Shown: positions 7,701-60,291, numbered from the stretch's first letter. The stretch is DNA of 64,000 nt from Cyanobacteria bacterium SIG31 (GCA_015152465.1 SUTX01000005.1:10528-74527), one strand, 5' to 3'. Program-made: numbers and translations. The notes: a model not told the origin generated them from the letters alone.

Positions 7701-9197
7701 ATGTGTAGACATTATTATATGAAAAATAGATTGGAAACTATGATGAAGATTCATACAACGCAAAATCTAAATTCTTTAAGTACAAATCAATCAACAAGTG
7801 TATCGAATACAAAGAATGATAGATTAAAACGAGCAGAAAATTCTTATTTGGGTTCGAATGGTTTAGCGAGTTTGCCTGATACCATTTCGTTTGAAGGCAA
7901 AGGTGAAGCTGTAGAAAAAATTGCAAAAGCTTTGCGTGAAGCAAAATTAGTTCAAAAAATAGAGAGTTCAAAAGTCGCGGGTAAAAAGAGTATAACAGAG
8001 AAGATTCTTTCAAGCGACTTTTTTGATGGTCTATTAGACTTAATGACTCACGAAACATTTATTCAGGCTGCTATTTCATTCTTAATTTGTGTATTCTTGA
8101 GACCATTGACTATTATGTCTTTGCCAACAAAAAAATCGAAAGAAGACAATAAGTATGCTTCTGCTCACTCAATGTCTTCTGGTTTTGTTGGGCTTGCATC
8201 TTCTGTTTTAATTGCAATTCCTTTTTCAAAAGGTTTAAAATATGCACAAAATAACATGATTGCAAATCTAAAAGAAGAAACTTTGAAAAGAATGTTTCCA
8301 CACTTAGATTTGAAATCTATAGTTGATTCAGCTGGCAAACGTATTACCGATATGAAACAATGGAAAGATAAATTCGGTAATGTCTTCTCAAAAGATATGA
8401 AGAATGCAATGCTAATTGCAAAACCAATTCATGCAACTGAAATCGGTGAAAAGACTTGGGAAAAATTCGGAATTAAACTTAATAAAGAAGCTAATAAAGG
8501 CAAGGCTATAGCTGAATGGATTGATTTAGATGGTAAAAGAGTGGTCGAAAAATTAGGGTTGAAAGATTTTTGTATTGCTGTTGAAGAAGCTGGTATGGGT
8601 TCAACACTTGGTAAAGGATATAAAAATACAAACTTTTTCTCATTGAAATATATAGGTGATGATTTGCTAGAAGCAGCATGTAAGGACTTAGACATTGCTT
8701 CTACTAAGGGGGCTAATGGTGAAAGACTACACCCTATTCATTGGAAGAACAAAGCAACAGGAAATGCTTATACAGAAATATTTGACGCAACACACTTGTC
8801 ATCATATACAGAAACTGCTGATTCAGTGCCTTTGTTCTTAAGTAAAGTTAGAACTGAATCAGGAACTGGTAAAACTAAATATACTGCTTTACAATCAAAT
8901 GTGGAATACCAAACTAGGGTTGGTGTTCCTGAAAAGATAGGCTCAGAAATTGAGCAAGCAAGTTTGGATGCAGATAAAGTTAGTGATATCCAAAATAAAT
9001 GGGTAGTTTGGTTGCCAGATATTATATCAAGACCGCTAGTTGCAACTGCTACTATTGCGTTGTTGCCTAAGATATTGAAAAACGTTTTTCACTTAGAAAA
9101 ACCTAAAAAACATCAAGCAACACCTGCTGTTCAACAAAACCAACTTGAAGGGGAAAATGCAAAACTTGCATTAACTTCCGGAAAGGAGGTGGCATAA
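7701..9197 (+). CDS. Hypothetical membrane protein (module A family, ISFEG leader); start probably 7740 or 7743
   Basis: Long ORF, Ser/Asn/Thr-rich N-terminus, hydrophobic hairpins near both ends. Confidence 0.75.
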   Translation: MCRHYYMKNRLETMMKIHTTQNLNSLSTNQSTSVSNTKNDRLKRAENSYLGSNGLASLPDTISFEGKGEAVEKIAKALREAKLVQKIESSKVAGKKSITEKILSSDFFDGLLDLMTHETFIQAAISFLICVFLRPLTIMSLPTKKSKEDNKYASAHSMSSGFVGLASSVLIAIPFSKGLKYAQNNMIANLKEETLKRMFPHLDLKSIVDSAGKRITDMKQWKDKFGNVFSKDMKNAMLIAKPIHATEIGEKTWEKFGIKLNKEANKGKAIAEWIDLDGKRVVEKLGLKDFCIAVEEAGMGSTLGKGYKNTNFFSLKYIGDDLLEAACKDLDIASTKGANGERLHPIHWKNKATGNAYTEIFDATHLSSYTETADSVPLFLSKVRTESGTGKTKYTALQSNVEYQTRVGVPEKIGSEIEQASLDADKVSDIQNKWVVWLPDIISRPLVATATIALLPKILKNVFHLEKPKKHQATPAVQQNQLEGENAKLALTSGKEVA

Positions 9198-9898
9198 TGA
9201 ATATCCAAGCAATTAGTAGAGCTCAACAATCTTATATGCTAAATAAACGATATGCTAATACTCCGTCTAGTAATCCAGTTGGTTCACTTGATACAGAGCA
9301 AAATGCAAATCAAGTTAATCCAAGCTTCAAAGGCTTAGGGGATTTTATTGGTAGAGTGTTTGGTGAACATTATGCAAAACGTATGCTTGATGCAAAATGG
9401 ACTCGTAACCTTGCTGAGTGGTTAACAAAAGCTCCTGGTAGTATGACTGAGCACATGGCAACACTAGGGTCATTAATTACAAGTAGCGTATATATGGGAA
9501 GAACTCTTTCTAATAAAGAGCTAGAAAATGATAAGAAAAAAACTCTTGCTATCAATCAGTTCTTATGTTTCTTGATTCCAACAGCAGCTGCTTATACAGT
9601 TAATAGTGTGCTTGCAGGGGTGAATAAAAAGCTTGAGCACAAGTACTCTGGTATACAATCGCAAAAAATAGCTTGGGGAGAAATATCTCAAGAAAAAGCT
9701 GCTGAAATCTTAAAGAAAAAGAGTGATAGACTAAAAGGTTTTAAAACACTATCAACATTAGCTACATTCACTCTAATTTACAGATACATAACACCAGTTA
9801 TTATTACGCCAGCTGCAAACTGGATTGGTGGAAAATTAAATAAGCGTAGCGAAGAGAAAAAAGCTAATGAGCAAAAATCTCAGGGGGCTGTGGCTTAA
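9197..9898 (+). CDS. Hypothetical membrane protein (module B family, PSFKG leader)
   Basis: TAATG overlap with upstream gene, RBS aaggaggtg, hydrophobic segments. Confidence 0.8.
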   Translation: MNIQAISRAQQSYMLNKRYANTPSSNPVGSLDTEQNANQVNPSFKGLGDFIGRVFGEHYAKRMLDAKWTRNLAEWLTKAPGSMTEHMATLGSLITSSVYMGRTLSNKELENDKKKTLAINQFLCFLIPTAAAYTVNSVLAGVNKKLEHKYSGIQSQKIAWGEISQEKAAEILKKKSDRLKGFKTLSTLATFTLIYRYITPVIITPAANWIGGKLNKRSEEKKANEQKSQGAVA

Positions 9899-9915
9899 AT
9901 AAATTAGTCTTCAAT

Positions 9916-9952
9916 AAAAGGACTGTTTCAATTGTTTGAGACAGTCCTTTTT
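9916..9952 (+). terminator. Intrinsic terminator
   Basis: aaaaggactgtttcaa-ttgt-ttgagacagtcctttt followed by T-run. Confidence 0.75.
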
Positions 9953-9968
9953 GTATTATAATAGTCAT

Positions 9969-10688
9969 ATGGAGCTTTTATTTTTAGATGTAGTTGATTC
10001 AACAAATAAATATGCGAAAGAGCATTTAAATGAATTAGAAGATGCAACTATTGTATATGCTGGATTGCAAACTGCGGGTAGGGGCCGAATGCAAAGAAAA
10101 TGGGATTCTAATTCTGGTGACAATATTTATGCCTCAATTGTTTTAAAACCATCAAATGAATTAAAAGAAGTCTATTCAAACTTAACTCAATATTTATCAC
10201 TAATACTAGCAGAGGTTTTTGAAGAGTACAATATATTACCTAAAATCAAGTGGCCAAATGATGTAAGAATAAATGGTAAAAAGATCTCAGGTATTCTTGC
10301 CGAAAGCGTGTTAGAGGGAAATGACTTAAAGGGTATAGTTTTAGGTTTCGGAGTAAATCTTAATTGTAAAAAAGACGATGTAGAAAAAATTGACCAACCT
10401 GCTACATCCTTAAATTTAGAAACTGGCATGAATATTGATAGAGAATTTTTCTTAAAAAAGGTCGTAGATAAGTTTTGTTTGAGGTATAATAAATTTATTG
10501 AGGAAGGATTTTTATTAATAAAAGAAGATTATATAAGAAGAGCCGAATTCCTTAATACCACTGTGACTGTAAAGGTTTTTGACAATGAAATTATAGGATT
10601 TGCTAAAGAAATTACAGATAACGGTGCTTTGAAGATAGTTGATAAAAACAATAAAGAACATGTACTGTTAATAGGAGATATTTTATGA
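9969..10688 (+). CDS. birA: Biotin--protein ligase
   Basis: VDSTN, QTAGRGR, IKWPND, KKISGIL, GFGVNLN; start refined to ATG 9969. Confidence 0.95.
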   Translation: MELLFLDVVDSTNKYAKEHLNELEDATIVYAGLQTAGRGRMQRKWDSNSGDNIYASIVLKPSNELKEVYSNLTQYLSLILAEVFEEYNILPKIKWPNDVRINGKKISGILAESVLEGNDLKGIVLGFGVNLNCKKDDVEKIDQPATSLNLETGMNIDREFFLKKVVDKFCLRYNKFIEEGFLLIKEDYIRRAEFLNTTVTVKVFDNEIIGFAKEITDNGALKIVDKNNKEHVLLIGDIL

Positions 10689-10921
10689 ATGAAACTTTAA
10701 TGCAAGGTGTTTCTGTAATGCTTATTGGTATGGGAACTGTAGTTGCATTTCTTTGCGTTACAATCATTTCGATGTTTGTAATGTCTTTTGTTATAGGAAA
10801 GTTAAATAAACTATTCCCAGAAGCTGTTCCTGCTGTTGCAGGCGGAGCTAAAAAAATTGCTACATCAAATGATGATAGCGAAGTTGCAGCTGCAATTGTA
10901 GCAGCATTATTTAAAAAATAA
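10685..10921 (+). CDS. oadG: Na+-translocating decarboxylase gamma subunit (OadG)
   Basis: Single TM (GMGTVVAFL), C-terminal EVAAAIVAAL, position before oadA. Confidence 0.85.
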   Translation: MNETLMQGVSVMLIGMGTVVAFLCVTIISMFVMSFVIGKLNKLFPEAVPAVAGGAKKIATSNDDSEVAAAIVAALFKK

Positions 10922-10947
10922 AATTTTAAGATAAAAGGAAGGTAAAA

Positions 10948-12753: not shown

Positions 12754-12768
12754 TAAGGGAGGTAAACA

Positions 12769-15890: not shown

Positions 15891-16493
15891 ATGGATAATT
15901 CTGTTAATAATATAAGTTTTAAAGCAAATATTGTTACTAAAATGAACGGACGTTATAGGCTAATTAATAAAGTAAGTAAATCTTTCGCTGAAAAAACAAA
16001 AAATATTCCAGGAGAGATGTGTATTTATCGTAATGCTAAGGAGTATCCTAAAGCAATAATTTTTTCTTATAAAAATAAAGATTATATTTTGCGTGATTAT
16101 GCAGATTTGATGGGGAACGATTTGTCTTCTAAGGCAGAAGTTACAGATAAACTAGTTGACAAGGTCACAAAAACTTTTGTAAACATTTTTAATGCATTAA
16201 AAGCAGATGTTATTTACGATATGCAAACAGCTGAGCTAGTTGCAAATATTCGAAGTACTAAAAATGCTTTAAAGAATAATACATATATGGCTAACAAACT
16301 GCAGGACAAAGGCTTAGATAAACTAGCAGAAAACTTTAAGGTGTTAGTTGGTCATAATGAAAGACGTTTAGCCAAGCTAAGAGCGGAATTAGAAAAATTT
16401 AATAATAATTATAGAACTAAGTTGGAAAAAATGGCCGAAAAAGAGCCAAAACTTGAAGTTTGGGCTTCAGTGATATCGTCAGATTTGAAATAA
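15891..16493 (+). CDS. Hypothetical coiled-coil protein with ISFKA leader
   Basis: RBS aaggag before ATG 15891; followed by terminator. Confidence 0.7.
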   Translation: MDNSVNNISFKANIVTKMNGRYRLINKVSKSFAEKTKNIPGEMCIYRNAKEYPKAIIFSYKNKDYILRDYADLMGNDLSSKAEVTDKLVDKVTKTFVNIFNALKADVIYDMQTAELVANIRSTKNALKNNTYMANKLQDKGLDKLAENFKVLVGHNERRLAKLRAELEKFNNNYRTKLEKMAEKEPKLEVWASVISSDLK

Positions 16494-23624: not shown

Positions 23625-24350
23625 TTAATATTGTGCTTTTTTGTTACCAATTTCATTACCCGGTATCATTAGCGCAAATGGTACCAATCTGGAAATATAA
23701 TGTACTACTTGCGATCTTGGGGCAACGTATTTAGCTGATGCCAGTACGTCATCAAAGTGAGGTGCTAAATCTGTTGCTTTAACATCTCTTTCTTCTTTTT
23801 TATTTTTAAATAAGACATTTGAAAGTTTATTCATAGCAAAGTTTGCTAAATAAATTCCGCCGACTATAGCGCCCAAACAAGCAATGGCTCTTGTTGCTTG
23901 TCCTTTAGCAGTTTTTTCTGAAATTTTTATCAGATCACAAAGCTTATTAGTTCCTGCTACTGTTGCAATTGGAATCGTGATATTTCCTATTTGCATAACT
24001 GCTTCTCTGCGTTTAGCTTTTCTATTTTGAGGATTCTTGTCAATAATATAACCTCCGGCCAATCCTCCCAAGCAACTTCCAGCACCTAGTGCTACGATTT
24101 CTTTAAATAAGAAGTCAGCATTTTCAAAATATTTTCTAGCGTTTTTAAAATTAAGTTTATAACCTTGAGCTTTCGTAAGTGCTGCTAAGCTACTGACAAC
24201 ACCTATTACTGTTGTGCCGGCTACGATAAGTTTGTCTTTGGTTGTATAATCGCTTTTCCAAAAGCTTTCTCCGCCATGCTTAAAAGCAGGCTCTTTTTTT
24301 GAGACTGTGTTGTTTGATACTGTGTCATATTTTGCTAGCGTGATGTTCAT
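23625..24350 (-). CDS. Hypothetical multi-pass membrane protein with PAFK leader
   Basis: 241-aa ORF with Gly/Ala-rich hydrophobic segments. Confidence 0.75.
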   Translation of the reverse strand: MNITLAKYDTVSNNTVSKKEPAFKHGGESFWKSDYTTKDKLIVAGTTVIGVVSSLAALTKAQGYKLNFKNARKYFENADFLFKEIVALGAGSCLGGLAGGYIIDKNPQNRKAKRREAVMQIGNITIPIATVAGTNKLCDLIKISEKTAKGQATRAIACLGAIVGGIYLANFAMNKLSNVLFKNKKEERDVKATDLAPHFDDVLASAKYVAPRSQVVHYISRLVPFALMIPGNEIGNKKAQY

Positions 24351-29938: not shown

Positions 29939-32032
29939 CTAAGCTTTTATAACACCAACTGATTTAACTTTTACATTTGGACTAATTTCATTATATGACA
30001 TAATTGCAATTTGCGGATAAGTTCTTTCTACCAATTTTCTAAAAAGAAGTCTAATTGGTGAAGAACATAGTATAACAGGTTGATTACCGGTTGCTGTAAT
30101 TGCTTTTTCTAATTCTAAATTCATTTTGTCAAAAAGAGACCTTGTAAACGCTGGATCAAGCGTGACGCTAGTTCCATCTGGACTAGCACCTTTTGCAATA
30201 GTATTTTCTATATCAGGAGAGAGGGTTATTACATATAAATCTCCTGTATCTGCTAGGTTTTGTTTGCAAATATTTCTTGCTAATGCTTGACGTACATGCT
30301 CTGTTAAAAAGTTTGGATTCTTATTAACTTTTGATTGTAGGCTAATTGTTTCAAGGATACTTTTTAAATCTCTAATTGCAACACCTTCTTTAAGAAGATT
30401 TTGTATAACAATCTGTACATCACTTATGGATATATCTTTCATTATATCGTTGACATAATCTTCAGAAACTTCTTTTTTAAGATTATCAATAAGTTGTTGT
30501 ATATCATATCTTGATACGATTTCATAAGCACATTTTTTGATAACTTCTGTTATATGGGTTGAAATTACAGCAGATGCTGAAACAACGGTATAACCAGACA
30601 TTTCAGCTAAATCTTTATCTTTGTTTTCAATCCACAATGCAGGTAGGCCAAAAGCGGGCTCTATTGCGTGAATACCATTAATAGTTAAGTTCCCAACAGG
30701 GTCTCCAGCACACATCGCTAAATACCTTTCTGGATAAACTTCTCCCGATTCCAAAGCAACGCCTTTTAGCTTGATTTGATAAGAATTAGGTGACAATTGT
30801 AGGTTGTCTCTAACCCTTATTGATGGCAAAACAATACCAAGATCGAGGGCAGTTTGTCTGCGAATTTGTGCTATACGCTCAAGTAAATCTCCACCCATTT
30901 CAACGTTAAGTAATTGTACAAGTCTATAGCCAACTTCAATTTCAATTGTGTCAACATTAAGTAGTTCCATAACACTTTCTTTTGTTGCCTTTGCTCGTTT
31001 TTCTTTTTTGCCAATTTTTTCTTGTTGCTCCATTTCCACTTTTTTGGCTTCTTCATTTTGGATAGATTCAACTTTTTCTTTATTCTTTAAATAAGCCATA
31101 CCACCTGCTAAAGCAGCAATAAATAGAAATGGTGCAGTAGGCATACCTGGAACAAGCCCCATAAAACCTAATAACCCTGCGACAACACCGAGTACTCGAG
31201 GGTCAGAAAACATTTCATTTTTTATATCTGTAGAAAGTGACTCATCTTTTCCTGTAGCACGAGATACGATCAAACCAGTTGCAGTAGATATTAAAAGAGC
31301 TGGAATTTGAGATACAAGGCCATCACCTACAGTAAGTATTGTATATGTTCCTAATGCAGACTGTACCGACATGTGTAATTGAACAACTCCAATAATTAAA
31401 CCGCCTACAATATTAATAATTGTAATAACGATACCAGCTGTAGCATCACCTTTAACGAATTTAGAAGCACCATCCATTGTACCGTAGAAGTCGGTTTCTC
31501 TTTCTAGTTTACGTCTTCTTTCTTTTGCTTGCTCTTCATCAATTAGGCCAGAGTTTAAATCAGCGTCTATACTTAGTTGTTTACCAGGCATTTTATCCAA
31601 AGTGAAACGTGCAGAAACTTCAGCTACACGAGTGGCACCGCCGGTAATAACCATAAAGTTGATTAATACCAAAATACAAAATATAACCGCACCGACTACA
31701 TAATTACCACCAACAACAAATTCTCCAAATGAGCTGATTACATTACCAGCCTCACCATTTAGTAAAATCAAACGAGTTGAACTAACGTTTAAGCCTAATC
31801 TAAATAGTGTTGCAATTAAAAGAACAGTAGGAAATGAAGAATAATCTAATGGTTCCTGTGTGTATAAACAAACAAGTAATATGACAACTGCTAAAGATAT
31901 ATTTATGGTCAATAAAATATCTAAGACTGGAGCAGGTAGTGGAATTACCATCATACAGACAATAACAACTAAGCCTATTGCTAGGACTATATCGTTATTT
32001 TTCAGTATGTTTGATAATTTAGATAACTCCAT
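29939..32032 (-). CDS. flhA: Flagellar export apparatus protein FlhA
   Basis: FPTVLLIATLFRL, RVAEVSARFTLDKMPGKQ, FYGTMDGASKFVKGD. Confidence 0.96.
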   Translation of the reverse strand: MELSKLSNILKNNDIVLAIGLVVIVCMMVIPLPAPVLDILLTINISLAVVILLVCLYTQEPLDYSSFPTVLLIATLFRLGLNVSSTRLILLNGEAGNVISSFGEFVVGGNYVVGAVIFCILVLINFMVITGGATRVAEVSARFTLDKMPGKQLSIDADLNSGLIDEEQAKERRRKLERETDFYGTMDGASKFVKGDATAGIVITIINIVGGLIIGVVQLHMSVQSALGTYTILTVGDGLVSQIPALLISTATGLIVSRATGKDESLSTDIKNEMFSDPRVLGVVAGLLGFMGLVPGMPTAPFLFIAALAGGMAYLKNKEKVESIQNEEAKKVEMEQQEKIGKKEKRAKATKESVMELLNVDTIEIEVGYRLVQLLNVEMGGDLLERIAQIRRQTALDLGIVLPSIRVRDNLQLSPNSYQIKLKGVALESGEVYPERYLAMCAGDPVGNLTINGIHAIEPAFGLPALWIENKDKDLAEMSGYTVVSASAVISTHITEVIKKCAYEIVSRYDIQQLIDNLKKEVSEDYVNDIMKDISISDVQIVIQNLLKEGVAIRDLKSILETISLQSKVNKNPNFLTEHVRQALARNICKQNLADTGDLYVITLSPDIENTIAKGASPDGTSVTLDPAFTRSLFDKMNLELEKAITATGNQPVILCSSPIRLLFRKLVERTYPQIAIMSYNEISPNVKVKSVGVIKA

Positions 32033-32045
32033 CCTCTACTTCCAC

Positions 32046-33125
32046 CTAAGTCTCTCTTTTACTATTGTACACATAAGCTAAGATTTCAGCAACAGCTACA
32101 TATAAATCTGATGGTATTATACCATCAACAGGTACCGAATTATATAAAGCTCGTGCAACAGGTCTGTTTTCTACAATGGGGACATTATTGTTTTTTGCGA
32201 TATCTCTGATTTGAAAAGCTAGGTAATCAACACCTTTTGCTACAACGATAGGAGCGGGTGCTTTGGTTTTATCATATTGTATTGCAACCGCATAATGTGT
32301 AGGGTTTGTAACAACAACATCTGCTTGTGGAACTGCTGACATCATTCTTTGGCGAGCCATTTGCATCTGAATCGATTTAATCTTAGCTTTTATTTTTGGA
32401 TCCCCTTCGATATCTTTATGTTCGTCCTTGACTTCTTGTTTAGTCATTTTAATTGATTTTTCATATTCATAGGTTTGATATTTTTTATCAAGATAGCCTA
32501 AAACAAGCATCGCTAAACACATGTTGATAATCATGTTTATTAAAATTGAGCCTATTATATTTAGCGCAATAGGAACTTCTAACCCAACTAAGCCTAGTAA
32601 ATCGCCTTTTCTACTATTAACAGCTGAATAACCGCAAGCTCCTACGATAATTATTTTTAGAATAGATTTCGCAAATTCAACCATTGAGCGTGGTTGGAAA
32701 GGATTTATAATTCGTTTAGCATTTTCTAGCATTCTTCTTGGGCTCAAGTTCTCAAGATTAAATTTTGCTTTTTCTAACGAGAAAACGTGACCAATGTCCA
32801 TTCTAATAACTATAATTGCTAATATTGCGAGTAATACAAAGAATGGAACAACGATTATACCCAAATATTTAAAATACGGATATAAAATTGCTGAGATGCT
32901 AGTTATGTCGACAGAATCTGGGTTTAGATTTGTAAAAGTTTCGTGCATCATTCTAATAATATAGTCATACATGTATTTGAAAAAAACAGCAAGTAAAGCT
33001 ATACCGCCAACCATTACCATTGCGGATTCCATATCTTTACTTTTTGCTACGTTCCCACGCTCTCGTTCTTTTTGGCGCCGTCGGGAGGTGGCTTCTTCAG
33101 TTTTTTCTGCTGCGTCGTTACCCAT
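32046..33125 (-). CDS. flhB: Flagellar export switch protein FlhB
   Basis: EKTEEAT, KMTKQEVKDE, NPTH autocleavage motif. Confidence 0.96.
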   Translation of the reverse strand: MGNDAAEKTEEATSRRRQKERERGNVAKSKDMESAMVMVGGIALLAVFFKYMYDYIIRMMHETFTNLNPDSVDITSISAILYPYFKYLGIIVVPFFVLLAILAIIVIRMDIGHVFSLEKAKFNLENLSPRRMLENAKRIINPFQPRSMVEFAKSILKIIIVGACGYSAVNSRKGDLLGLVGLEVPIALNIIGSILINMIINMCLAMLVLGYLDKKYQTYEYEKSIKMTKQEVKDEHKDIEGDPKIKAKIKSIQMQMARQRMMSAVPQADVVVTNPTHYAVAIQYDKTKAPAPIVVAKGVDYLAFQIRDIAKNNNVPIVENRPVARALYNSVPVDGIIPSDLYVAVAEILAYVYNSKRET

Positions 33126-33142
33126 TTTTTGACCTTATATCT

Positions 33143-33922
33143 TTAGAATATCGTTGCAATTTTTGTTACAAATTGTTCTATTATTACTGCCATATGTTCT
33201 GCCATTGGACGCATAAACATAAGAGATAATAGTAAACCTAAGTATATTTTAAGTGGTAGTGAAACCATGAATATGTTCATTTGAGGCATCATTTTTGAAG
33301 TAAAACCAAGCAATACGTCGGTAATAAAAAGTATCCCAAATATTGGCAATGCTACTCCGAGTCCGACTGAAAAAAGTTGGCTTGTAATGATTACGATTTG
33401 ATCAACCACACCTGGTGAAAAATTCATAACATAACCAATAGGCATGCTTTTAAAGCTGTTGTATATGGCTGAAAATAACCACTGGTGAGCCCCTAAGCCA
33501 ATAAACACCATTGAAGCTAAATATGTAAATGCTTGAGTAATAACTGGAGAGTTCCCTCCTGAGGTCGGGTTTAATGCTTGGTCTGCAGACAAACCCATTT
33601 GAACAGTAAAGGTGTTAACTCCAAGTTCAATACCTACAAAAATAATGTTTGCGCAAAAGCCAATAGCATATCCGATTAAATACTCTTTAAATAAAATTAA
33701 GCTTAATGCTGGAACTGAATTTGGTGTTACAAAATTAGTACTAAGTTGTACTATTGGAAACAAAATAAATGCAATTGCTGCTGATAACCAAACTTTTACC
33801 TGTGCAGGTATAGGGTAAGTCGAGAATAATGGTGCGGATGCAAACAAGCCTGACAATCTTGTGAATATTGCCATAAATAAGATTATATTACTAACAGAGA
33901 ATAATACATCTAAGTTGAACAT
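33143..33922 (-). CDS. fliR: Flagellar export protein FliR
   Basis: Hydrophobic, QMGL, PQMNIFMVSLPLK; context. Confidence 0.93.
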   Translation of the reverse strand: MFNLDVLFSVSNIILFMAIFTRLSGLFASAPLFSTYPIPAQVKVWLSAAIAFILFPIVQLSTNFVTPNSVPALSLILFKEYLIGYAIGFCANIIFVGIELGVNTFTVQMGLSADQALNPTSGGNSPVITQAFTYLASMVFIGLGAHQWLFSAIYNSFKSMPIGYVMNFSPGVVDQIVIITSQLFSVGLGVALPIFGILFITDVLLGFTSKMMPQMNIFMVSLPLKIYLGLLLSLMFMRPMAEHMAVIIEQFVTKIATIF

Positions 33923-34194
33923 TACATCGCACCTATTAACTGCGGAATCATTGAATTAAACTCGTTTACGGTTGTTATAAAAACTCCCATCATCCAAGGT
34001 AGTAAAAATATTAATAATACAACACAACCTACAATTTTAGGTACAAAAGTTAACGTAGATTCTTGGATTTGTGTAACTGTTTGAAATATACTAACCATTA
34101 AACCTATTACAACCCCTACTAAGAGAATTGGAACAGACATTTGTAAGGTCAATATAAACATTTTTTGTAAAAGTGTTATTACTATATCTTGCAT
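33922..34194 (-). CDS. fliQ: Flagellar export protein FliQ
   Basis: VSIFQTVTQIQESTLTFVPK. Confidence 0.95.
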   Translation of the reverse strand: MQDIVITLLQKMFILTLQMSVPILLVGVVIGLMVSIFQTVTQIQESTLTFVPKIVGCVVLLIFLLPWMMGVFITTVNEFNSMIPQLIGAM

Positions 34195-34206
34195 ATTATA
34201 TTACTC

Positions 34207-34962
34207 CTACCTCACAAAGCTTTCGACTAAAGATTTAACTATCAGATACCAGCCATCAACCATAACAAACATAATCAGCTTAAAAGGTAAAGCAATCATA
34301 GATGGAGGCAAAAACATCATCCCCATTGATACTAGAACTGATGAAACAACAATATCTATAACTAAGAATGGCAAGTATACGACAAAGCCTATTGTAAAAG
34401 CTGTTTTAAGCTCACTCATAATAAATGATGGTAATAGAACGTAAGTCGGAACATCATCTTTCGTTTTAGGTTTTTCGATTTTAGCCATTCTGACAAAAAG
34501 TGCAAGTTCTTTTTCGTGAGTTTGCTTAAACATGAAGTTTCTTATAGGCTGTATCCCACGGTCAATTGCGACTTGTTGTGTTATTTGGTTTTTCATGTAT
34601 GGCTGAAGAGCTTTTTCATTAATTTCATTGAAAGTTGGAGCCATAATAAAAAAGGTTAAAATTAGGGCTAGGCCTGTGATAACTTGATTAGGTGGTAAAG
34701 TCCCTGCTCCTAAAGCTTGTCTTGTAAGGGCTAAAACGACTACTAATCGTACAAAACAGGTTGTAAGGATTAATATACTTGGGGCTAAAGTTAGTATTGT
34801 TAACCAAATTAGGATTTGTAGTCCGTTTGTAAAATCTTGTGGTGTGTTAGCATTCTGTAAGCCAATATTTATATTCGGAAACGACATTGCCGCACTAGAA
34901 GGCAACATAGTCATAAATAGGCCTAAGAATAAATATCCCCACTTTCTCATAATATTCATCAT
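34207..34962 (-). CDS. fliP: Flagellar export protein FliP (start refined from 35025)
   Basis: LTILTLAPSI, PPNQV, SELKTAF.IGF, FVMVDGW. Confidence 0.95.
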   Translation of the reverse strand: MMNIMRKWGYLFLGLFMTMLPSSAAMSFPNINIGLQNANTPQDFTNGLQILIWLTILTLAPSILILTTCFVRLVVVLALTRQALGAGTLPPNQVITGLALILTFFIMAPTFNEINEKALQPYMKNQITQQVAIDRGIQPIRNFMFKQTHEKELALFVRMAKIEKPKTKDDVPTYVLLPSFIMSELKTAFTIGFVVYLPFLVIDIVVSSVLVSMGMMFLPPSMIALPFKLIMFVMVDGWYLIVKSLVESFVR

Positions 34963-35117
34963 TAATTCCTCAAAAAAATCAACTATCAATAAGGAGCTAC
35001 TATACTCCCCCACACAAGCATACACTATATATAATTTTCTGACAAAATGTTAAGTTATATGTACTGTTTTAGCAAATAAAATTTTTAGTTGTGTTATAAC
35101 ATTTGAAGGAGTTTACT

Positions 35118-35414
35118 ATGAAAATCAATAATAACAGTATTACTTTTAAAAAACTAACAATGCCATCTCAAGCTGAAATAAGTAAGATATTAGGTCAAGA
35201 GGCAGGGTTCAAAGCTGAAAGAGTGCGTGAGCCTCTAGAAAAGTTAGGCCGCTCGTTAGACTTATCTATTACTCCGGTTAAACTATGGGATAATGGATGT
35301 TTTGTTATTGTTGCAAAAAAGTTTGATGATATATCACCAAAATATGTATTACAAGCAAAAGAAAATAATTTATTAAAACAGGCAAGACGTCTAGTTAAAT
35401 CTATTGGTGTTTAA
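35118..35414 (+). CDS. Hypothetical protein with ITFKK leader
   Basis: RBS aaggag before ATG 35118; divergent from fliP. Confidence 0.65.
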   Translation: MKINNNSITFKKLTMPSQAEISKILGQEAGFKAERVREPLEKLGRSLDLSITPVKLWDNGCFVIVAKKFDDISPKYVLQAKENNLLKQARRLVKSIGV

Positions 35415-51364: not shown

Positions 51365-51616
51365 ATGTTACCAATCATAACAGAGGAAATTTCAACAGAA
51401 ATTTTTGGTGAAGTATTTCAAGATGTTCAAGCATGGCGTAAAAATATGGTTCAATATCTAAAAGAAGAAAATCCTGAAATTAATACAGCTATTCTTGAAG
51501 TCGCAAAATATGATGAAGGTATTGATTTAAAAGCTGTAGCTTTAGGAGCTTACCTCTCATATAGATTAATTGAAATTGCAACTGAAAATGATACCTTGAT
51601 GACTATTGAGGAATAG
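51365..51616 (+). CDS. Small acidic hypothetical protein
   Basis: RBS aggagata, 83 aa. Confidence 0.7.
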   Translation: MLPIITEEISTEIFGEVFQDVQAWRKNMVQYLKEENPEINTAILEVAKYDEGIDLKAVALGAYLSYRLIEIATENDTLMTIEE

Positions 51617-52613
51617 AGTTCTCGTTCTTCTTTTTAACGCTATCGATTCTATCAGCAGCAAAAGTTGATAGTACTGGTATTATAATGTAATAAACAACAG
51701 CCATGATTAGTATTGGTTTTGCAATTTTAATCCCCTCTAAGTATTCAGGGAGCTTCTTATCGTTTTTATTAGCTAACTTAAATTTTTCAATAAATTTTTT
51801 TGCTGGATTTTCGGTTATTTTATCTATAAAATAACTTGTTATAATGCTAAGTCCGGTAGATATAGCTGAGTTATAAATTAAAGGTTTCTTGTCTTTTTCT
51901 TCAAGTTTTTTATTTTTTGCTGTTTGATAGATAAATGTTGCTGTGGTTAAACTATCTGTTGCGGCTATAATATGCATTGGGAAGTTAGAATCTTTATATT
52001 TATTAGAAAATTCTTGTATAGTTTTTTTATTTAAAATTTTACTAATGCCTTTAGAAAGCTTATCATTACCTTTAAAAGTTAAATTATTAACCTGCTTTTT
52101 GTCCTTTATATCATTATTTTCTGCATTCTCTTTTATAAATATATTAAGGATAAACGGTGTGGTCGCTGCTGTTAAAATAGCCTTAGGTACTGCTATTATG
52201 AAACCTAATCCCAGTTTAAAAAGTTGTGTTGCCAACGAGTAAACTTTTGATTCTTTTAAGCTAGAAGCTCCATTTTTTAAGCTACTTATTGCTTCTTTTG
52301 TTAAGTATTTATCGGGGTTTTTATCAATATTCTTAATGGATTTAGCTAATGGTAAAGAAAAAGCTAACATCATAAAATAACCGATAGCCGTTGATGATAT
52401 TGATTTTGCACATGCGACTTGTTTATTTTTTTTGTCTGTTTTTGGGGTTGCTAATATTGCAATAGGTCTTACGGTGGTTGAGAACACTAAAGATGTTGTG
52501 CCAGCAAATAATGTACCGTTTTTAGCAGCAAATTCTAAGCCTTTTTTTAAGACTTTGCTATCCCATAATCCGGCAAAAGAAATATTTCGTTTATCTGTAT
52601 AATTTACTTTCAT
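51603..52613 (-). CDS. Hypothetical membrane protein, fusion of module A and module B families
   Basis: ISFAG leader, internal LTFKG, similarity by eye to 7701-9197 and 9197-9898. Confidence 0.8.
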   Translation of the reverse strand: MKVNYTDKRNISFAGLWDSKVLKKGLEFAAKNGTLFAGTTSLVFSTTVRPIAILATPKTDKKNKQVACAKSISSTAIGYFMMLAFSLPLAKSIKNIDKNPDKYLTKEAISSLKNGASSLKESKVYSLATQLFKLGLGFIIAVPKAILTAATTPFILNIFIKENAENNDIKDKKQVNNLTFKGNDKLSKGISKILNKKTIQEFSNKYKDSNFPMHIIAATDSLTTATFIYQTAKNKKLEEKDKKPLIYNSAISTGLSIITSYFIDKITENPAKKFIEKFKLANKNDKKLPEYLEGIKIAKPILIMAVVYYIIIPVLSTFAADRIDSVKKKNENSIPQ

Positions 52614-55492: not shown

Positions 55493-56723
55493 TTTTGTAG
55501 AAATTGCCAAAAATGCAAAACTTGCATCTAAAAAGTTAGCAACTTTATCAACTGATATAAAAAATAAAGCTCTTCTTGCAATCGCAGAAGCTTTAGATTT
55601 AAATCAATCGTTGATATTTGAAGCAAATAAAAAAGATTTGGAATTGGCTAAAGACACCCTATCAGCATCGGTTTTTAATCGTCTCAAGCTTGATGCTAAT
55701 AAGATGCGTGATATGATTCAAGGGGTAATTGATATCTATAATTTAGAAGATCCAATAGGAAAATTTTTGATGCAAAGATCTCTTGATACAGGCTTAATTC
55801 TTTCAAAAGTGTCTTGTCCAATCGGAGTTTTAGGGATAATTTTTGAAGCTCGTCCCGATGTTATTTCACAAATTACAGCTTTAGCTATTAAATCTTCGAA
55901 TGCTATTATTTTAAAAGGTGGGAAAGAGGCTGTAAACACAAATAAAGCTATATTTAAAATAATTAATGATGCATTAGCTTCAATTAAAATATTCCCTCCG
56001 CATTCTATTACACAAGTTTTCTCGAGAGAAGACGTGCAAGAGATGCTTAAATGTGATGCCTATATTGATTTAATTATACCTAGAGGTGGTAATGATTTAG
56101 TTAAATATATAAAAGAAAACACTAACATACCTGTATTAGGGCATGCGGATGGAGTTTGTCATATTTTTGTTGATGAATTTGCTGATTTAGAGAAAGCTAA
56201 ACGTATAATTATTGATGCCAAAACTCAATATCCGAGTGCTTGCAATTCTGTTGAGACTCTTTTAATTCATGAAAGATTTATGTATAAGGAAGAATTACAA
56301 AAAGTATTATTAAGTTCCGGTATAGAGCTAATTTATAATGTTGAGAATTGGCATGTTGAGTATTCTGACACGAAGTTGTCTGTAAAATTTGTATCGTCTT
56401 TAGAGGAGGCTGTTGAGCATATTAATAATTATTCGTCAGGACATACCGAATCAATAATTACTGATAGCAGGGAAAATGCTGCTGTTTTCTTGAAAACAGT
56501 CGATTCTGCTGGAGTATATCACAATGCATCAACTCGTTTTGCTGATGGCTTTAGATATGGTTTTGGGGCAGAGGTCGGGATTTCAACAAATAAAATTCAT
56601 GCAAGAGGGCCTGTAGGCTTGCAAGGTTTAACTATATATAAGTATACATTACAAGGTAATGGCGATATTGTTAACGATTATATAGAAGGTGTAAAACATT
56701 TTAACCATAAGGATTTAATATGA
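55479..56723 (+). CDS. proA: Gamma-glutamyl phosphate reductase
   Basis: GIIFEARP, IPRGG, CNSVETLL, HNASTRFADG, GAEVGIST. Confidence 0.96.
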   Translation: MAECNFVEIAKNAKLASKKLATLSTDIKNKALLAIAEALDLNQSLIFEANKKDLELAKDTLSASVFNRLKLDANKMRDMIQGVIDIYNLEDPIGKFLMQRSLDTGLILSKVSCPIGVLGIIFEARPDVISQITALAIKSSNAIILKGGKEAVNTNKAIFKIINDALASIKIFPPHSITQVFSREDVQEMLKCDAYIDLIIPRGGNDLVKYIKENTNIPVLGHADGVCHIFVDEFADLEKAKRIIIDAKTQYPSACNSVETLLIHERFMYKEELQKVLLSSGIELIYNVENWHVEYSDTKLSVKFVSSLEEAVEHINNYSSGHTESIITDSRENAAVFLKTVDSAGVYHNASTRFADGFRYGFGAEVGISTNKIHARGPVGLQGLTIYKYTLQGNGDIVNDYIEGVKHFNHKDLI

Positions 56724-57487
56724 AAATAGGTGTTATAGGTTTAGGTTTAATAGGCGGTTCCATATTTAAAGAATTATCTCTTAATGTGGAGTATGAACTC
56801 GTTGGAATCTCTCGCACATTAAAAGCAAAAAATGTGTATACAGATTATAATAACCTTAAGGACTGCGATTTAGTATTTGTTTGTACACCTATAAATGCGA
56901 CATTAGAGATCCTTGATGCTTTAAATGATTTACTACCAGAAACTACGATTGTTACAGATGTTTGTAGTTTGAAAAATTTTGTTTCTAATAAAGAGTACAA
57001 ATATAATTTTATACCGTCACACCCGATGGCGGGTACAGAAAAATCTGGCTGGGAGAACTCTTTTGTTGGACTTTTCAAAGGAGCTAAATGGGCAATAACT
57101 CCTATTGGTGGGAATATAACACCTGCTCAAGATGCTTTGGAGAAAATAATAAAAGAACTTGGGGCAGAGCCTGTAGTGACTTCGCCAGAAGAACATGATA
57201 GGGCTGTAGCTTTAATTTCGCACTTTCCACTAGTTGTTGCTCAAGCTTTGTGTGAGAATATTAAGGACAATAAGCTTGCTCAATTACTTGTTTCAACGGG
57301 TTTTAAGGATACGACTCGTCTTGCTTTGTCAAATATAGAAATGGCCACTGATATGGTTGATTTTAATAGAAAAAATATTGTTGAAGCATTAAAACTTTTT
57401 GAAAAAAATATTAATGAAATCTTAAATGATGACTATAAGTTAAAGGCTACAGAACTAAAAGACTTTAGAGCAAACCTATATAATTAA
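56720..57487 (+). CDS. tyrA: Prephenate/arogenate dehydrogenase
   Basis: GLGLIGGS, TDVCSLK, HPMAGTE, HDRAVALISHFP, GFKDTTRLA. Confidence 0.9.
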   Translation: MKIGVIGLGLIGGSIFKELSLNVEYELVGISRTLKAKNVYTDYNNLKDCDLVFVCTPINATLEILDALNDLLPETTIVTDVCSLKNFVSNKEYKYNFIPSHPMAGTEKSGWENSFVGLFKGAKWAITPIGGNITPAQDALEKIIKELGAEPVVTSPEEHDRAVALISHFPLVVAQALCENIKDNKLAQLLVSTGFKDTTRLALSNIEMATDMVDFNRKNIVEALKLFEKNINEILNDDYKLKATELKDFRANLYN

Positions 57488-60291
57488 GATTTTAAACTTT
57501 CAAAATAGGTTTGGTTAGCTTTTAGCGTGTCTTCACTTCCAACTACAAAATACGTTGGAGGGTTTTTGAATACTTTTTGTGCAAGTGTATCAATGTCTTC
57601 TCTTGTAATTTTATCAATTAGTTTGTATTTAATATTATCTCTGTAAACTCCCATTTCATCATTTAAAGCACCAGATAGTATTGATACTTTTGATGGAATA
57701 CCTTCATTATCAAGCAATACAGCTTTATAAGCTTTTTTGACGCTCATTAAGTCGTCATCTGTGTATTCTGAATTTAGTAAGCATTGAATTTGTCTGTGGA
57801 AACCGTTTATAGATTTTTGCACGTTTTCAAAGCTTTGTTCGCCTGTTTCTTTGTTGTCAGTTGTTGTTAAAATATTTAGTGATAATTCTCCTGTATCGCC
57901 AACTCTGTCGATGTCAGAATATACAGAATATGCCAATTTTTCTTTTTCTCTAAGGGTGTTAAATAGGCCAATTGTAGAAGAAGATGTTAGTAGCGAATTC
58001 AATAATCTTAGAGTGATTTTTTCTTTAGGCGTATCTACTGCTGGGAATGTATATAGTTGTATAATATCTGCTTGTGAAGCATCTTTATTTTTTGTAATAA
58101 CTACGGGTTTTGAGTTTTCAATATAACCGTGTTCTTTAATATAACGAAAAGGTTTTACTTTGTTTAATCCATTAAATTCTTTAATAGCAATTTCTTTTAT
58201 TTTATCATTTTTTTCTGGTACATTTATTGCTATTGTTGCACAAGAGTTTTCAAGGATATATTTATGCAAATTTTTTATATCGTCAAGTGTTAAGGTTTTT
58301 AATCCTGCTTTGATCTTTTCATTAGATATAACCAATTCTGAAGATTTGCCAAAATAATCATAATAAAGTGATTCAGCTGTAACTTCTTGCTGTTTTAATT
58401 TATCTAGGGCTCTTTCAACAGCATCGTTAAATTCTTTTTGGGTTAATCTTGGGTTGACAATAAGTTCTTTTGCGCTGTCTACAGCTTCTTTGAAATTATC
58501 GCAATTGGCGGAACCTTTTAATGATAGTGATGTAAGCCTATTTCCAGCGAAAATGCTGTAGTTATTATCTTCTTGAACTCTTTTAAATTCTTCTTCTGTC
58601 TTTGTTGAAGTCCCTTGCCCAAAGAGCTCATCTAATATAATAAAAGCTGCAGGATTAATGTTTTTAGGAAGTTTGTACGAGTATTTAATACTAAACTTCA
58701 AGTTGTTATTATTTTTTGTTTTAATAAACCCTATTTTATAATTATTATCTAGTACTGTTTCGCTAATATTTTCTGGATTTACAGGGGTTCTATCTTTGCC
58801 TTTAAAGCTTATGTTGTTTGTTTTATTATAATTTTTATTGATTTCTTCAATAGTGGTTTTAGGGTGCACAACAGTTATTGCTGCTCGACTTAGGTCAATA
58901 TACTTTTCAATGTAGTTATTTACATCTTCTTCTGTAATACTACTAACGATTTCAGGATATTTAGTTAAATATTCTAAAGAATTGTCAAATGTTGATTTAC
59001 CTACAATATCATTAATGTAGCCAGAATAACTAAGTCTATTGTCATAATTTTCTAGTAAACGTTTTTTTAGTATTTCTAAATTCTTTTTGTTTGGTGATTT
59101 TAGGGATGCAAGTTTTTCATGTAATATTTTTAATGCTTTTTCAGAGTTTTCTTCAGATGTCTCTATGTCAACAGTGATTAAACTTGAACCGTTTTTCTCA
59201 TTTGTAATTTTATTATTAGAAACGATAGCTTGGGTATTTAATGGTTTTAAAGCTTTGTTGAAACCTGAATAAACGCTAGAAATGTATTCCTCTAATAATT
59301 CGTGTATTACTTTAGATTTAACATCACTGTTTTTAGGCCCCACAAAACCCAATTCAATCATTGTTGACGTCGCTGTTTTATTGATAAAATCCTTTCTTAC
59401 AGTACTTTTTATTGGGGTTAAACTTTCATGATAAAGTTCAGAGCTGCTTGTTTTTTTAGAATGGAAATTTTTTGCAACTAACTTTATAACCTCATCTGGG
59501 TCGACATCTCCAGTAATTACTAAATTCATATTATCAGGAGTATAGTGTTTGTCATAATATTCTTTTACATCTTTTTTTGTTAGATTCTGAATATGCTTTG
59601 TGCTACCTGCGATTAACTCATCTGCAGAGCTTCTGATGTTAAATAGAGTGCGGAGTGTTTGGTCATAAGTTGTTGTTTCTGGACGATCCATTATCATGTT
59701 TATCTCTGAACAAACAGGACCTTTCTCTTTTTCTATCATTTCTTCTGTTAATGCAAGATCTTCTGTCATCGCAGCTATGACTTTAATTTGTTCTTCTAAA
59801 TCTCTATCTTCTAATAATGGTGTTGAATTCACATAATCAGTAAGGGCATGACTTGTGCTTGCATTTGTCCATCCACCCAAAATCTCTATTTTTTTAAAAC
59901 TGTCACCTTGATTGAGTTTTAAATGATTATAACCATTTGTGCCATTGAATGCCATGTGTTCTAAAAAGTGGCTGATTCCTTTGATATTATCAGGCTCGTT
60001 AAAAGCACCAACGTTAACATAATTTTTAACCGTAGCTGGAGAACTTTCCATTGGTATTATTGATACCCTATATCCATTTGCAAGTTTATAAGAATGGATT
60101 TTTAAACCATTTGGGATATCTGTTTCGCTAATTTTTTTGTAACTTTGTGGCGTGCGTACAGCAAAATCTGGAGTTACATTACTAAGTTCCTTTATTTCAG
60201 TTTTACTGTTAAGGTTTTCATCTAAGGGTTTTGTAACAGCCTGTGAGCTTTTGAATGCAATACTATTAATATTTGAAACTTTCATCACCAT
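57484..60291 (-). CDS. M16-family (pitrilysin-like) zinc peptidase with two fused halves
   Basis: GISHFLEHMAF (HXXEH), NASTS, C-terminal LREKEKLAYSV; 935 aa. Confidence 0.9.
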   Translation of the reverse strand: MVMKVSNINSIAFKSSQAVTKPLDENLNSKTEIKELSNVTPDFAVRTPQSYKKISETDIPNGLKIHSYKLANGYRVSIIPMESSPATVKNYVNVGAFNEPDNIKGISHFLEHMAFNGTNGYNHLKLNQGDSFKKIEILGGWTNASTSHALTDYVNSTPLLEDRDLEEQIKVIAAMTEDLALTEEMIEKEKGPVCSEINMIMDRPETTTYDQTLRTLFNIRSSADELIAGSTKHIQNLTKKDVKEYYDKHYTPDNMNLVITGDVDPDEVIKLVAKNFHSKKTSSSELYHESLTPIKSTVRKDFINKTATSTMIELGFVGPKNSDVKSKVIHELLEEYISSVYSGFNKALKPLNTQAIVSNNKITNEKNGSSLITVDIETSEENSEKALKILHEKLASLKSPNKKNLEILKKRLLENYDNRLSYSGYINDIVGKSTFDNSLEYLTKYPEIVSSITEEDVNNYIEKYIDLSRAAITVVHPKTTIEEINKNYNKTNNISFKGKDRTPVNPENISETVLDNNYKIGFIKTKNNNNLKFSIKYSYKLPKNINPAAFIILDELFGQGTSTKTEEEFKRVQEDNNYSIFAGNRLTSLSLKGSANCDNFKEAVDSAKELIVNPRLTQKEFNDAVERALDKLKQQEVTAESLYYDYFGKSSELVISNEKIKAGLKTLTLDDIKNLHKYILENSCATIAINVPEKNDKIKEIAIKEFNGLNKVKPFRYIKEHGYIENSKPVVITKNKDASQADIIQLYTFPAVDTPKEKITLRLLNSLLTSSSTIGLFNTLREKEKLAYSVYSDIDRVGDTGELSLNILTTTDNKETGEQSFENVQKSINGFHRQIQCLLNSEYTDDDLMSVKKAYKAVLLDNEGIPSKVSILSGALNDEMGVYRDNIKYKLIDKITREDIDTLAQKVFKNPPTYFVVGSEDTLKANQTYFESLKS

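Follow-up and report, generated by a model that had tools for sequence, protein, structure and literature searches.

The DNA analysed here (the window, 64,000 nucleotides) comes from an uncultured gut relative of cyanobacteria, of the order Gastranaerophilales, and raises the question of why unrelated proteins begin with a similar polar leader and what reads it. A sequence-only reading had reported such leaders on seven proteins of the window, and all these N-termini (7743, 9197, 15891, 24350, 35118, 52613 and 60285) were found to read as it described. The leader has two conserved parts, an N-terminal cap, M-[KQNR]-[IV]-x-x-[IV]-[NS], and an F-box, [PTIV]-[SNTA]-F-[KQ]-[GSA]. They are joined by a disordered, acid-poor linker (tether) of 0-55 residues, which is highly variable in length, low in complexity, rich in N/Q/S/Y/P and depleted in Leu, Val, Ile and Ala. 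In short form, the leader can be written Met-Lys-Ile-x-x-Ile ... Pro-Ser-Phe-Lys-Gly. The features of the window are listed below, with the score of a 9-residue PSSM where one was noted.

7743..7898, plus strand: leader of a 484-aa membrane protein (ORF 7701/7743-9197), with the cap MKIHTTQN and a polar linker
7884-7898, plus strand: F-box ISFEG of the 484-aa membrane protein
9197..9334, plus strand: leader of a 233-aa membrane protein (9197-9898), with the cap MNIQAIS and a 34-aa polar linker (PSSM 18.3)
9320-9334, plus strand: F-box PSFKG of the 233-aa membrane protein
15891..15926, plus strand: short leader MDNSVNNISFKA of a 200-aa protein (ORF to 16493; PSSM 16.8)
24276..24350, minus strand: leader MNITLAKYDTVSNNTVSKKEPAFKH (MNITLA...PAFKH) of a 241-aa protein
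29939..35025, minus strand: A-type export-gate operon fliPQR-flhBA (context)
29939-32032, minus strand: flhA
32046-33125, minus strand: flhB
33143-33922, minus strand: fliR
33922-34194, minus strand: fliQ
34207-35025, minus strand: fliP
35118..35153, plus strand: short leader MKINNNSITFKK of a 98-aa protein (PSSM 15.2; leader HMM match)
52068..52082, minus strand: internal F-box LTFKG of the 336-aa protein, between its two modules (residue 180; PSSM 14.2)
52569..52613, minus strand: leader MKVNYTDKRNISFAG of a 336-aa two-module membrane protein (51603-52613)
58798..58812, minus strand: internal F-box ISFKG at the junction of the M16 halves (residues 492-496)
60247..60285, minus strand: leader MKVSNINSIAFKS of a 933-aa M16 peptidase (57484-60285)

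Orthologues of the 484-aa protein in two relatives (G005 and G008) retain the leader as MKIHTTQN/MNIHTTQN ... VSFKG. A locus search with the 233-aa protein found no relatives, and the 200-aa protein has no Pfam family. In the 241-aa protein, the leader is followed by a lysine-flanked transmembrane segment.

The spread of the leader over unrelated proteins proved larger than originally claimed. Genome-wide, about 74 proteins carry it (4.8 per 100 genes, ~5% of the proteome), and after removal of the motif they fall into 70 families (BLAST, E < 1e-5). Only proteins in which no 12-residue window ahead of the motif had a mean hydropathy above 2.0 were taken as carriers, and most of these have no predicted transmembrane segment. 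The density of the F-box in the first 50-60 residues is 11-12 times that in the remaining protein, a fold-enrichment that is somewhat optimistic since N-terminal regions of the same genome served to train the PSSM. At a PSSM score above 12, 72 matches lie within the first 50 residues and ~32 everywhere else; an independent length-based gene call gave 75 and 29, respectively (density ratio 11.2). The looser expression [ILPVAMT][STA]F[KEARQ][GASHKN], in the style of the original reading, matches 69 times within the first 50 residues of 1534 ORFs and about 3 times per 10-residue bin deeper in the ORFs. A few of the hits are chance matches (ribosomal protein S20, FlgD, and ISFSG in FliD).

The two parts are strongly associated with each other (Fisher odds ratio 20, p = 2e-18, with an identical start-choice rule for all genes). 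Position 3 is Ile/Val in all 32 of the 32 best caps, and position 6 in 29 of them. The Phe of the F-box is invariant and the neighbouring positions are specific; some leaders contain tandem F-boxes (TNFKS...VSFKG, INFKG...VAFKG, VSFKG..ISFNG). The choice among synonymous codons at the motif matches that of the genome, with serine encoded from both codon families, so the motif is a protein signal and its reading as a DNA or RNA element is ruled out. This shows that selection on the motif acts at the protein level; the cap and the F-box are under purifying selection and the tether is free to drift. The G+C content of the genome is 33%, and the cap codons AAA, ATT and AAT are AT-rich. Two other approaches were dropped: cross-genome counts of IUPAC DNA patterns for the cap and F-box, in which six-frame noise was as strong as the signal and controls with swapped codons yielded as many matches or more, and exact k-mer enrichment, which was dominated by signal-peptide hydrophobic residues and 11 flagellin paralogues.

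The two parts behave differently when proteins are fused. The 7701/9197 gene pair is a single gene in G008 and G010, where an internal F-box survives (VTFKG; VSFKG..ISFNG) without the cap, whereas the split forms carry the cap. The cap is found only at true N-termini, and the F-box is also retained inside proteins at fusion junctions. In the M16 peptidase, F11 and F494 are each at least 90% conserved among 81 aligned orthologues (47-61% identity) and form sharp conservation peaks within variable linkers. The F-box at the junction is retained at 31-34% identity across all families of Gastranaerophilales. According to AlphaFold2, the folded body has a pLDDT of 85.8 and residues 1-41 and 477-497 fall below 50; both F-box copies are therefore predicted to lie in disordered segments, and the idea that the F-box forms a structural strand in the M16 fold was rejected. 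The F-box also works internally. M16 homologues from other orders carry classical Sec signal peptides, as does a second M16 copy within Gastranaerophilales; the leader-bearing copy never does.

Outside this genome, the leader is present across Gastranaerophilales, with wholly diverged linkers between its two parts. A search of nine other families of the class, of which seven possess flagellar-type export gates, did not detect it, although divergence could account for part of this apparent absence, since both the HMM and the PSSM had this genome as their training set. Relatives from other orders with 44-46% G+C have no leader, and a flagellin-less genus with 33% G+C has fewer leaders, yet still has them. 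Pfam and NCBIfam gave no match of any curated model to the N-terminal region in the 47 carriers scanned, NCBIfam gave no leader model for 10 carriers scanned, and a full-text literature search found no description of the motif. The order-wide conservation, the predicted disorder and the 70 unrelated families bear out one half of the sequence-only reading, namely, that this is a lineage-specific recognition signal.

Most carriers are orphans. Two are 5'-nucleotidase/metallophosphatase proteins according to Pfam, enzymes that usually carry a signal peptide, and others contain RHS or AvrB_AvrC domains. Together with the M16 pattern, these hint at an extracytoplasmic or translocated destination. 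The carriers also include three AAA ATPases, three CheR-like SAM methyltransferases and one HNH nuclease, which depend on cofactors found in the cytoplasm and would have no use in the periplasm or medium. Some leaders come before lysine-flanked transmembrane segments or Sec-like signal peptides, an arrangement that fits cytoplasmic docking and export alike.

Our preferred reading, to which we give somewhat less than an even chance, takes the leader as a short linear recognition peptide, built of two parts and specific to Gastranaerophilales, that routes its clients to one common pathway. The tag probably marks its carriers for a shared export, processing or docking step. A trans-acting factor would read the F-box in the cytoplasm, whatever its position, and the cap would contribute a step specific to the N-terminus. 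The form that we favour is non-Sec export or translocation coupled to putative processing at the F-box; the cap and tether would then resemble a targeting peptide that is taken off, and cleavage would separate fused proteins into their modules. As the machine, the prime candidate is the flagellin-independent second (B-type) type III system, through which export is possible, perhaps with the assistance of a soluble paralogue of the FlhA C-domain (FlhA_C).

The same tag could serve inside the cell. The F-box, in a flexible N-terminal or inter-domain linker, would tether its clients to one putative cytoplasmic hub (a scaffold, polar landmark, chaperone or protease), and the clients would be neither exported nor cleaved. 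The conservation of internal F-boxes within disorder, the tandem copies and the ATP- or SAM-dependent carriers all agree with such docking, and the F-boxes of membrane proteins adjoin lysine-rich stretches before transmembrane hairpins, which suggests that they face the cytoplasm. Docking leaves unexplained, however, the restriction of the cap to true N-termini, its strong association with the F-box and the replacement of a Sec signal by the leader in the M16 and 5'-nucleotidase families, and we consider it a rather unlikely alternative.

The preferred reading has to be separated from the other half of the sequence-only reading, in which the gate of the window would read the leader as a flagellar type III export signal. 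The genome contains two complete export gates, one of them the fliPQR-flhBA operon of the window. This A-type gate co-occurs with flagellin genes and therefore belongs to the true flagellum; its presence does not follow that of the leader. The gate is missing from 51 genomes that belong to other genera of the same family, and nine genomes from five other genera of that family lack both the gate and flagellin. The comparison of gate-lacking relatives covered the absence of the A-type gate and other orders. All eight gate-less, flagellin-less genomes searched with the leader model gave matches (1-11 at E <= 1), with a density in one of them of 1.1-2.0 leaders per 100 genes (400-kb sample); conversely, other orders carry the gate and have no leader. 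The flagellar gate of the window is not an obligatory reader, and as an exclusive reader it is already contradicted. Its supporters are the architecture, which resembles the bipartite signal of early flagellar subunits (PMC8983047), the polar, acid-poor tether, as in type III signals, and the 98-aa leader gene that adjoins fliP and is transcribed divergently from it. The cap also resembles the flagellin N-terminus of this genome (MISINTN); flagellin N-termini elsewhere are of the MRINHN type. Nevertheless, the F-box does not follow the FxxxPhi consensus (Phe+4 is hydrophobic in 36% of 74 leaders vs 35.5% of the proteome background), 43 of 74 leaders place the Phe at positions 7-19 from the initiator Met, and the conserved internal F-boxes also argue against any purely N-terminal type III signal. 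Recognition by this gate is accordingly very improbable.

As for the second system, it is retained in every Gastranaerophilales genome searched for it, with B-type FliI in every genome tested, and B-type FlhA or FliI in every leader-bearing genome searched for them; a Gastranaerophilales genome devoid of FlhA was not encountered among those searched. Leader-less orders also have the B-type system and the A-type gate, so co-occurrence singles out no reader. Seven families from other orders do not have soluble FlhA_C, which is present in 16 of 16 Gastranaerophilales genomes tested; it is also present in family f10, which has no leader, and in families f3 and f4, which gave no leader-HMM matches. 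An operon-like gene order, fliI followed by a 1513-aa leader protein and an AAA leader protein, is kept in the close relative G002 and is not found in G008 or other genera; synteny with fliI as a general link to the leader was rejected, being limited to close relatives. Most Gastranaerophilales retain only partial flagellar sets, for which a role in secretion was "postulated" (preprint 10.64898/2026.04.24.720558).

That the leader has no common function and reflects AT-rich codon bias, low-complexity N-termini and selection for weakly structured translation starts is scarcely credible: the low G+C content, AT-rich cap codons and simple tether speak for it, but conservation of the motif, both inside proteins and from orthologue to orthologue, has already refuted it. 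The F-box is retained in orthologues down to 31% identity while the flanks drift, and the idea also conflicts with the invariant Phe and its specific flanks, the N-terminal density, the ordinary codon usage, and the distribution of leaders among relatives of 33% and 44-46% G+C.

A more specific version of the preferred reading, which we regard as quite unlikely in its entirety, is that Gastranaerophilales sort proteins by an undescribed pathway that has a consensus "transit peptide" of its own. The cap would engage a re-purposed flagellin-independent type III apparatus or another translocon, and the F-box would be a docking and cleavage site, with soluble FlhA_C as a candidate receptor and the leader-bearing M16 protein as a candidate peptidase. 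Some 75-100 proteins might leave the cytoplasm by this route, perhaps to enter another cell; among them would be peptidases, nucleotidases, AAA ATPases, methyltransferases, AvrB-like/RHS proteins and Inc-like hairpin membrane proteins.

Gastranaerophilales are common gut bacteria that have not been cultured, and to our knowledge their cell biology is essentially undescribed. A consensus tag on ~5% of the proteome offers a ready-made list of shared-fate proteins, mostly orphans. If these are exported or translocated, the leader would be the first signal, type III-like or wholly new, that can be recognised by a sequence consensus; metagenomes would then allow a direct prediction of secretomes, and there would be a function for the "partial flagellar" genes that these bacteria retain. 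A docking or processing motif would instead reveal a large hub or maturation system.

The leader matches no described sorting signal. The Sec/lipoprotein h-region (~10-15 residues after a basic n-region) is not found in the carriers, which were preselected without a hydrophobic window; the lack of a Sec signal peptide noted for the original seven leaders holds with this qualification. The Tat consensus is S/T-R-R-x-F-L-K followed by an h-region; the leader consensus has no RR, Lys dominates after its Phe, and NCBIfam gave no signal model. The class III type IV prepilin pattern G|F-T-L-I-E does not apply either: the order in the leader is F-K-G with no hydrophobic helix after it, and the genuine prepilins of this genome (GFTLAEVLITL, KGFSLMEMMIVLL) look unlike it.

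The early flagellar signal combines an N-terminal small-hydrophobic signal with a gate recognition motif (GRM), FxxxPhi; in Salmonella FlgD these are 2-SIAV-5 and the FlhB-binding 36-FLTLL-40 (PMC8983047). [quoted passage not shown] The leader shares with this signal two short elements within a disordered N-terminus, small non-polar residues at positions 3-7 with a Phe-centred motif downstream, a polar linker and the absence of a hydrophobic core. The B-type FliK-like proteins of the same genome, which start with MNI-x-T followed by an S/T linker and a Phe motif, represent the classical version. The leader differs in its non-hydrophobic Phe+4, in a Phe that in more than half of the leaders lies less than 19 residues from the N-terminus, in much stricter preferences (Pro/Thr/Ile at -2, Ser/Asn at -1, Lys at +1, Gly/Ser/Ala at +2), in the conservation of the F-box at internal positions and in its occurrence on ~5% of the proteome, on non-flagellar proteins.

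Like the beta-clamp-binding motif QLxLF and the SSB C-terminal tip, which sit on flexible tails and bind a hub, the F-box is a conserved 5-residue aromatic motif in disorder that can move among unrelated proteins, is accepted at internal positions and is sometimes present in several copies. The partners of QLxLF and of the SSB tip are known, and neither motif is tied to an N-terminal cap. In contrast to hub-binding motifs, it has ~74 clients, most with unassigned functions, and is almost always N-terminal. Compared with cleavable organellar and bacterial targeting peptides that have a processing site (the mitochondrial presequence with its M16 processing peptidase, and the Sec signal peptide with Ala-x-Ala), the leader lacks an amphipathic helix, a hydrophobic core and Arg at -2 or -3. 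It shares with them the character of an N-terminal add-on on unrelated proteins, in which a variable tether is combined with a conserved short site with a small residue near its end. The likeness extends to the M16 peptidase, which itself bears the tag, just as the subunits of the mitochondrial processing peptidase themselves carry a targeting tag.

The window lies at C22:10528-74527 of the source genome, Cyanobacteria bacterium SIG31 (designated G000; relatives carry other G-numbers and its contigs C-numbers), which comprises 1.68 Mb in 31 contigs with 33% G+C. The close relatives of the window-encoded FlhA all come from gut metagenome-assembled genomes labelled Gastranaerophilales, Melainabacteria or Vampirovibrio. 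Each of the seven N-termini quoted in the sequence-only reading was found at its coordinate. In addition, the ORF at 1-915 (+), cut by the left edge of the window, starts 132 bases upstream (C22:10396); its complete leader, MKVFAISSYNHKTRSFKYSQEPSFEG, makes it the eighth leader carrier at this locus.

A regular expression generalised from the seven examples was applied to 1534 ORFs called genome-wide with a codon-usage model, and gave 69 matches in residues 1-50 versus about 3 per 10-residue bin downstream. Refining these sites into a 9-residue PSSM (score >12) gave 72 N-terminal and ~32 internal matches in the same gene set. With a second, length-based gene call, the motif was again commoner at N-termini than internally (75 versus 29, density ratio 11.2), carriers amounting to 4.8 per 100 genes. 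The final carrier set, defined by the lack of a hydrophobic stretch preceding the motif, contained 74 proteins, including a few chance matches (S20, FlgD, FliD). Once the leader was stripped, these 74 carriers fell into 70 BLAST families, which bears out the earlier claim that the leader occurs on unrelated proteins.

The leader consists of a cap, M-[KQNR]-[IV]-x-[PSAN]-[IV]-[NS], a tether of 0-55 residues and a Phe-centred F-box, [PTIV]-[SNTA]-F-[K>QNGR]-[GSA]. The tether is enriched in Asn (2.2-fold) and also in Pro, Tyr, Gln and Ser, and is depleted in Asp (0.38-fold), Glu, Leu, Ala and Val. Cap and F-box show a strong tendency to occur together (odds ratio 20, p = 2e-18). Since the F-boxes of many additional cap-bearing proteins are weaker (NFEA, TFRD, SFRN), the true leader family is probably nearer 100 proteins. 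The motif codons match genome-wide usage, both Ser codon families being used, which indicates that selection acts on the peptide.

Tandem F-boxes were observed at C9:64312-65184, C14:135870-136250 and C27:49090-50217 of G000 and at locus L005 of G010 (pairs TNFKS...VSFKG, INFKG...VAFKG, LSFAN..INFRA and VSFKG..ISFNG); the TNFKS...VSFKG leader has a second cap-like segment, SINGVKAIN, as if the entire leader were duplicated. In four other proteins (G000 C23:36118-38830 and C26:4128-4517), caps such as MKINAIKTP... and MKIQSILPT... directly precede a Sec-like hydrophobic segment that ends in AKAQE or SKAQEA, with no F-box.

The F-box works independently of its position. Genes 7701-9197 and 9197-9898 form a single gene in G008 and G010, and the junction retains VTFKG or VSFKG...ISFNG with the cap missing; in G005 the pair is split, as in G000, and the second gene begins with MNISGL...VSFKG. 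Paralogous membrane proteins contain internal F-boxes downstream of K/Q/N-rich linkers.

As for the M16 peptidase, nearly all of the 40 orthologues inspected among 120 listed (47-61% identity) keep the motif at both sites, N-terminal and internal. Across the alignment of 81 orthologues, conservation reaches at least 90% at both F11 and F494, which stand out as sharp peaks within otherwise variable segments. The junction motif [IV]-[SN]-F-[KGS]-[GS] persists order-wide at 31-34% identity, including family f4, in which the N-terminus is Q/Y-rich without a recognisable cap. The AlphaFold2 model based on the M16 alignment has a confident body (mean pLDDT 85.8, pTM 0.80), and pLDDT is below 50 in residues 1-41 and 477-497. 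Conservation of the motifs within these low-pLDDT segments indicates short linear motifs in disorder, outside the fold; on this model, the F-box copies would have to be read in trans by something. No Sec signal peptide was found in the order-wide orthologues at 31-34% identity. Since classical Sec signal peptides are carried by two-half M16 homologues in other orders and by a second within-order copy, the leader-bearing M16 lineage thus swapped its Sec signal or never had one.

Pfam scans covered 47 carriers, the majority of which matched no Pfam family.

Carrier proteins assigned by Pfam
Peptidases: M16; M29; M3; an FtsH-like AAA+M41 protein
ATPases: two AAA ATPases besides the FtsH-like protein
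Phosphatases: two metallophosphatase/5'-nucleotidase proteins
Amylase type: a 1513-aa protein with an alpha-amylase domain
Methyltransferases: three CheR-like SAM methyltransferases
Others: one HNH nuclease; one RHS-repeat protein
G000 C9:58504-59370, +: 288-aa protein with an AvrB_AvrC domain (E = 7.5e-11, passing the cut-off)

Other known occurrences of the AvrB_AvrC domain are in the type III effectors that plant pathogens produce. A further group of carriers are membrane proteins that contain transmembrane hairpins (7701, 9197, 51603 and their paralogues). The main rival explanation is a purely intracellular docking role for the leader: some carriers need ATP or SAM, which speaks against their simply ending up in the periplasm or outside the cell. 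Some other carrier families are normally exported. The best-supported reading is that the leader combines a cap with a position-independent F-box that would be read in trans, and that it would route the client proteins into a common export-and-processing pathway.

The phyletic range was analysed using a 20-position HMM built from 30 short leaders of G000.

Leader-HMM matches by lineage (f-numbers denote families)
G000 itself: 31 at E <= 10; 23 at E <= 1
Same genus: 3-20 at E <= 1
Other genera of the same family: 1-11
Families f8, f9, f20, f5 and f2 of the order: 1-6
Families f3 and f4 of the order: 0
Nine families of other orders: 0-4, all at E > 0.3 (background)

About half of the other-order matches fell in ORFs shorter than 100 codons. 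Genuine leaders, e.g., MQINSINQNYSSMNFSG, MNINKINNFNTQPIAFKG and MHINSIQSNYQSNYQPNFKA, were confirmed by translation in six more genomes from five families. The density of cap-bearing genes, for which 400 kb was sampled from each of four genomes, was 3.7 per 100 genes in G000, 2.4 in G020 (family f9), 1.1 in G050 (another genus of the same family) and 0 in G024 and G083, both from other orders, the former with both export gates and the latter with no FlhA. The leader is a trait of the Gastranaerophilales order, and a diverged version may occur elsewhere, as both the HMM and the PSSM were trained on G000.

G000 encodes two complete export gates sharing 30-44% identity, the compact A-type operon of the window and a dispersed B-type set.

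Type III loci of G000
29939-35025, -: A-type gate, compact operon fliPQR-flhBA (window)
C27:34569-39343: A-type partner fliFGHI
C19:34279: B-type FlhA
C1:58558-59625: B-type FlhB
C14:65614-67916: B-type FliPQR
C19:30359-36366 (spanning C19:34279) and C19:72772-74118: also assigned to the two systems

FliF, FliE, FlgB/C, FliJ and FliK are also duplicated, and FliI is present as two. The A-type FlhA occurs within this genus as well as in the other families of the order; among the remaining genera of the same family, 51 genomes lack it. Across the class, flagellin genes (PF00669) track the A-type gate exactly, with 5-24 copies where the gate is present; no copy was found in B-only genomes, whether in the same family (nine genomes from five genera) or in two other orders. 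The second FliI shares the distribution of the A-type gate, and the B-type FliI occurs in every genome tested. Since flagellin genes and the second FliI track the A-type gate, the gate of the window belongs to a true flagellum. The B-type set is present in all genomes tested for it, including flagellin-less ones (nine of the same family, two of other orders), and appears to be a type III apparatus that Vampirovibrionia conserve independently of flagellin. Its retention regardless of flagellin agrees with a preprint (10.64898/2026.04.24.720558), according to which a full flagellar set is found in only ~25% of Gastranaerophilales, the remainder retaining flhB, fliI, flgG, etc., "postulated" to serve secretion.

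Eleven flagellin paralogues are encoded in G000 (window 63311-64000, +, and 10 other loci), six of them very long (645-935 aa) with a near-identical N-terminus, MISINTNLSSLITQRSL, along with three FliD paralogues. The B-type fliI is followed by the 1513-aa alpha-amylase-domain leader protein and an AAA-ATPase leader protein (C19:66631-74118, -; gaps of 148 bp and 26 bp); the order of fliI and the giant protein recurs in G002 and is not found in G008 or other genera.

The sequence-only reading had proposed a lineage-specific targeting signal, plausibly read by the flagellar-type gate of the window. Lineage specificity of the recognition signal holds, and the link to this gate does not: leader matches were obtained in all eight searched genomes lacking both flagellin and the A-type gate, so this gate is not required as the reader. 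The B-type system, being universal in the order, stays a candidate reader; other orders also have it, without the leader. Another candidate is a soluble FlhA_C paralogue (G000 C23:12942-14414, -; 490 aa), which consists of a small N-terminal domain and an FlhA C-terminal domain (FHIPEP 321-655) and lacks a membrane portion. Each of the 16 Gastranaerophilales genomes tested has it at full length, as does family f10, and it is absent from seven families of other orders, its correlation with the leader being imperfect. Its candidacy rests on the role of FlhA_C as the platform on which type III substrates dock (PMC10965912). No published description of the leader motif was found in the literature searched in full text.

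The leader resembles the known bipartite flagellar signal (PMC8983047) in that small non-polar residues at positions 3-7 are followed by a polar linker and, downstream, a Phe motif. However, the leader departs from the GRM consensus of the flagellar signal, the residue four positions after Phe being hydrophobic in 36%, which equals background. In addition, Phe lies at most 19 residues from Met in 43 of the 74 leaders, whereas the flagellar signal requires a spacing of at least 19-30 residues (PMC8983047). As both the GRM consensus and the spacing fail, membership of the leader in this signal class was rejected. The B-type FliK-like proteins of G000 begin with MNI-x-T, followed by an S/T linker and [SK]-F-x-[DE]-E-[LM] at residues ~30-45; the classical signal therefore exists in this genome and is distinct from the F-box.
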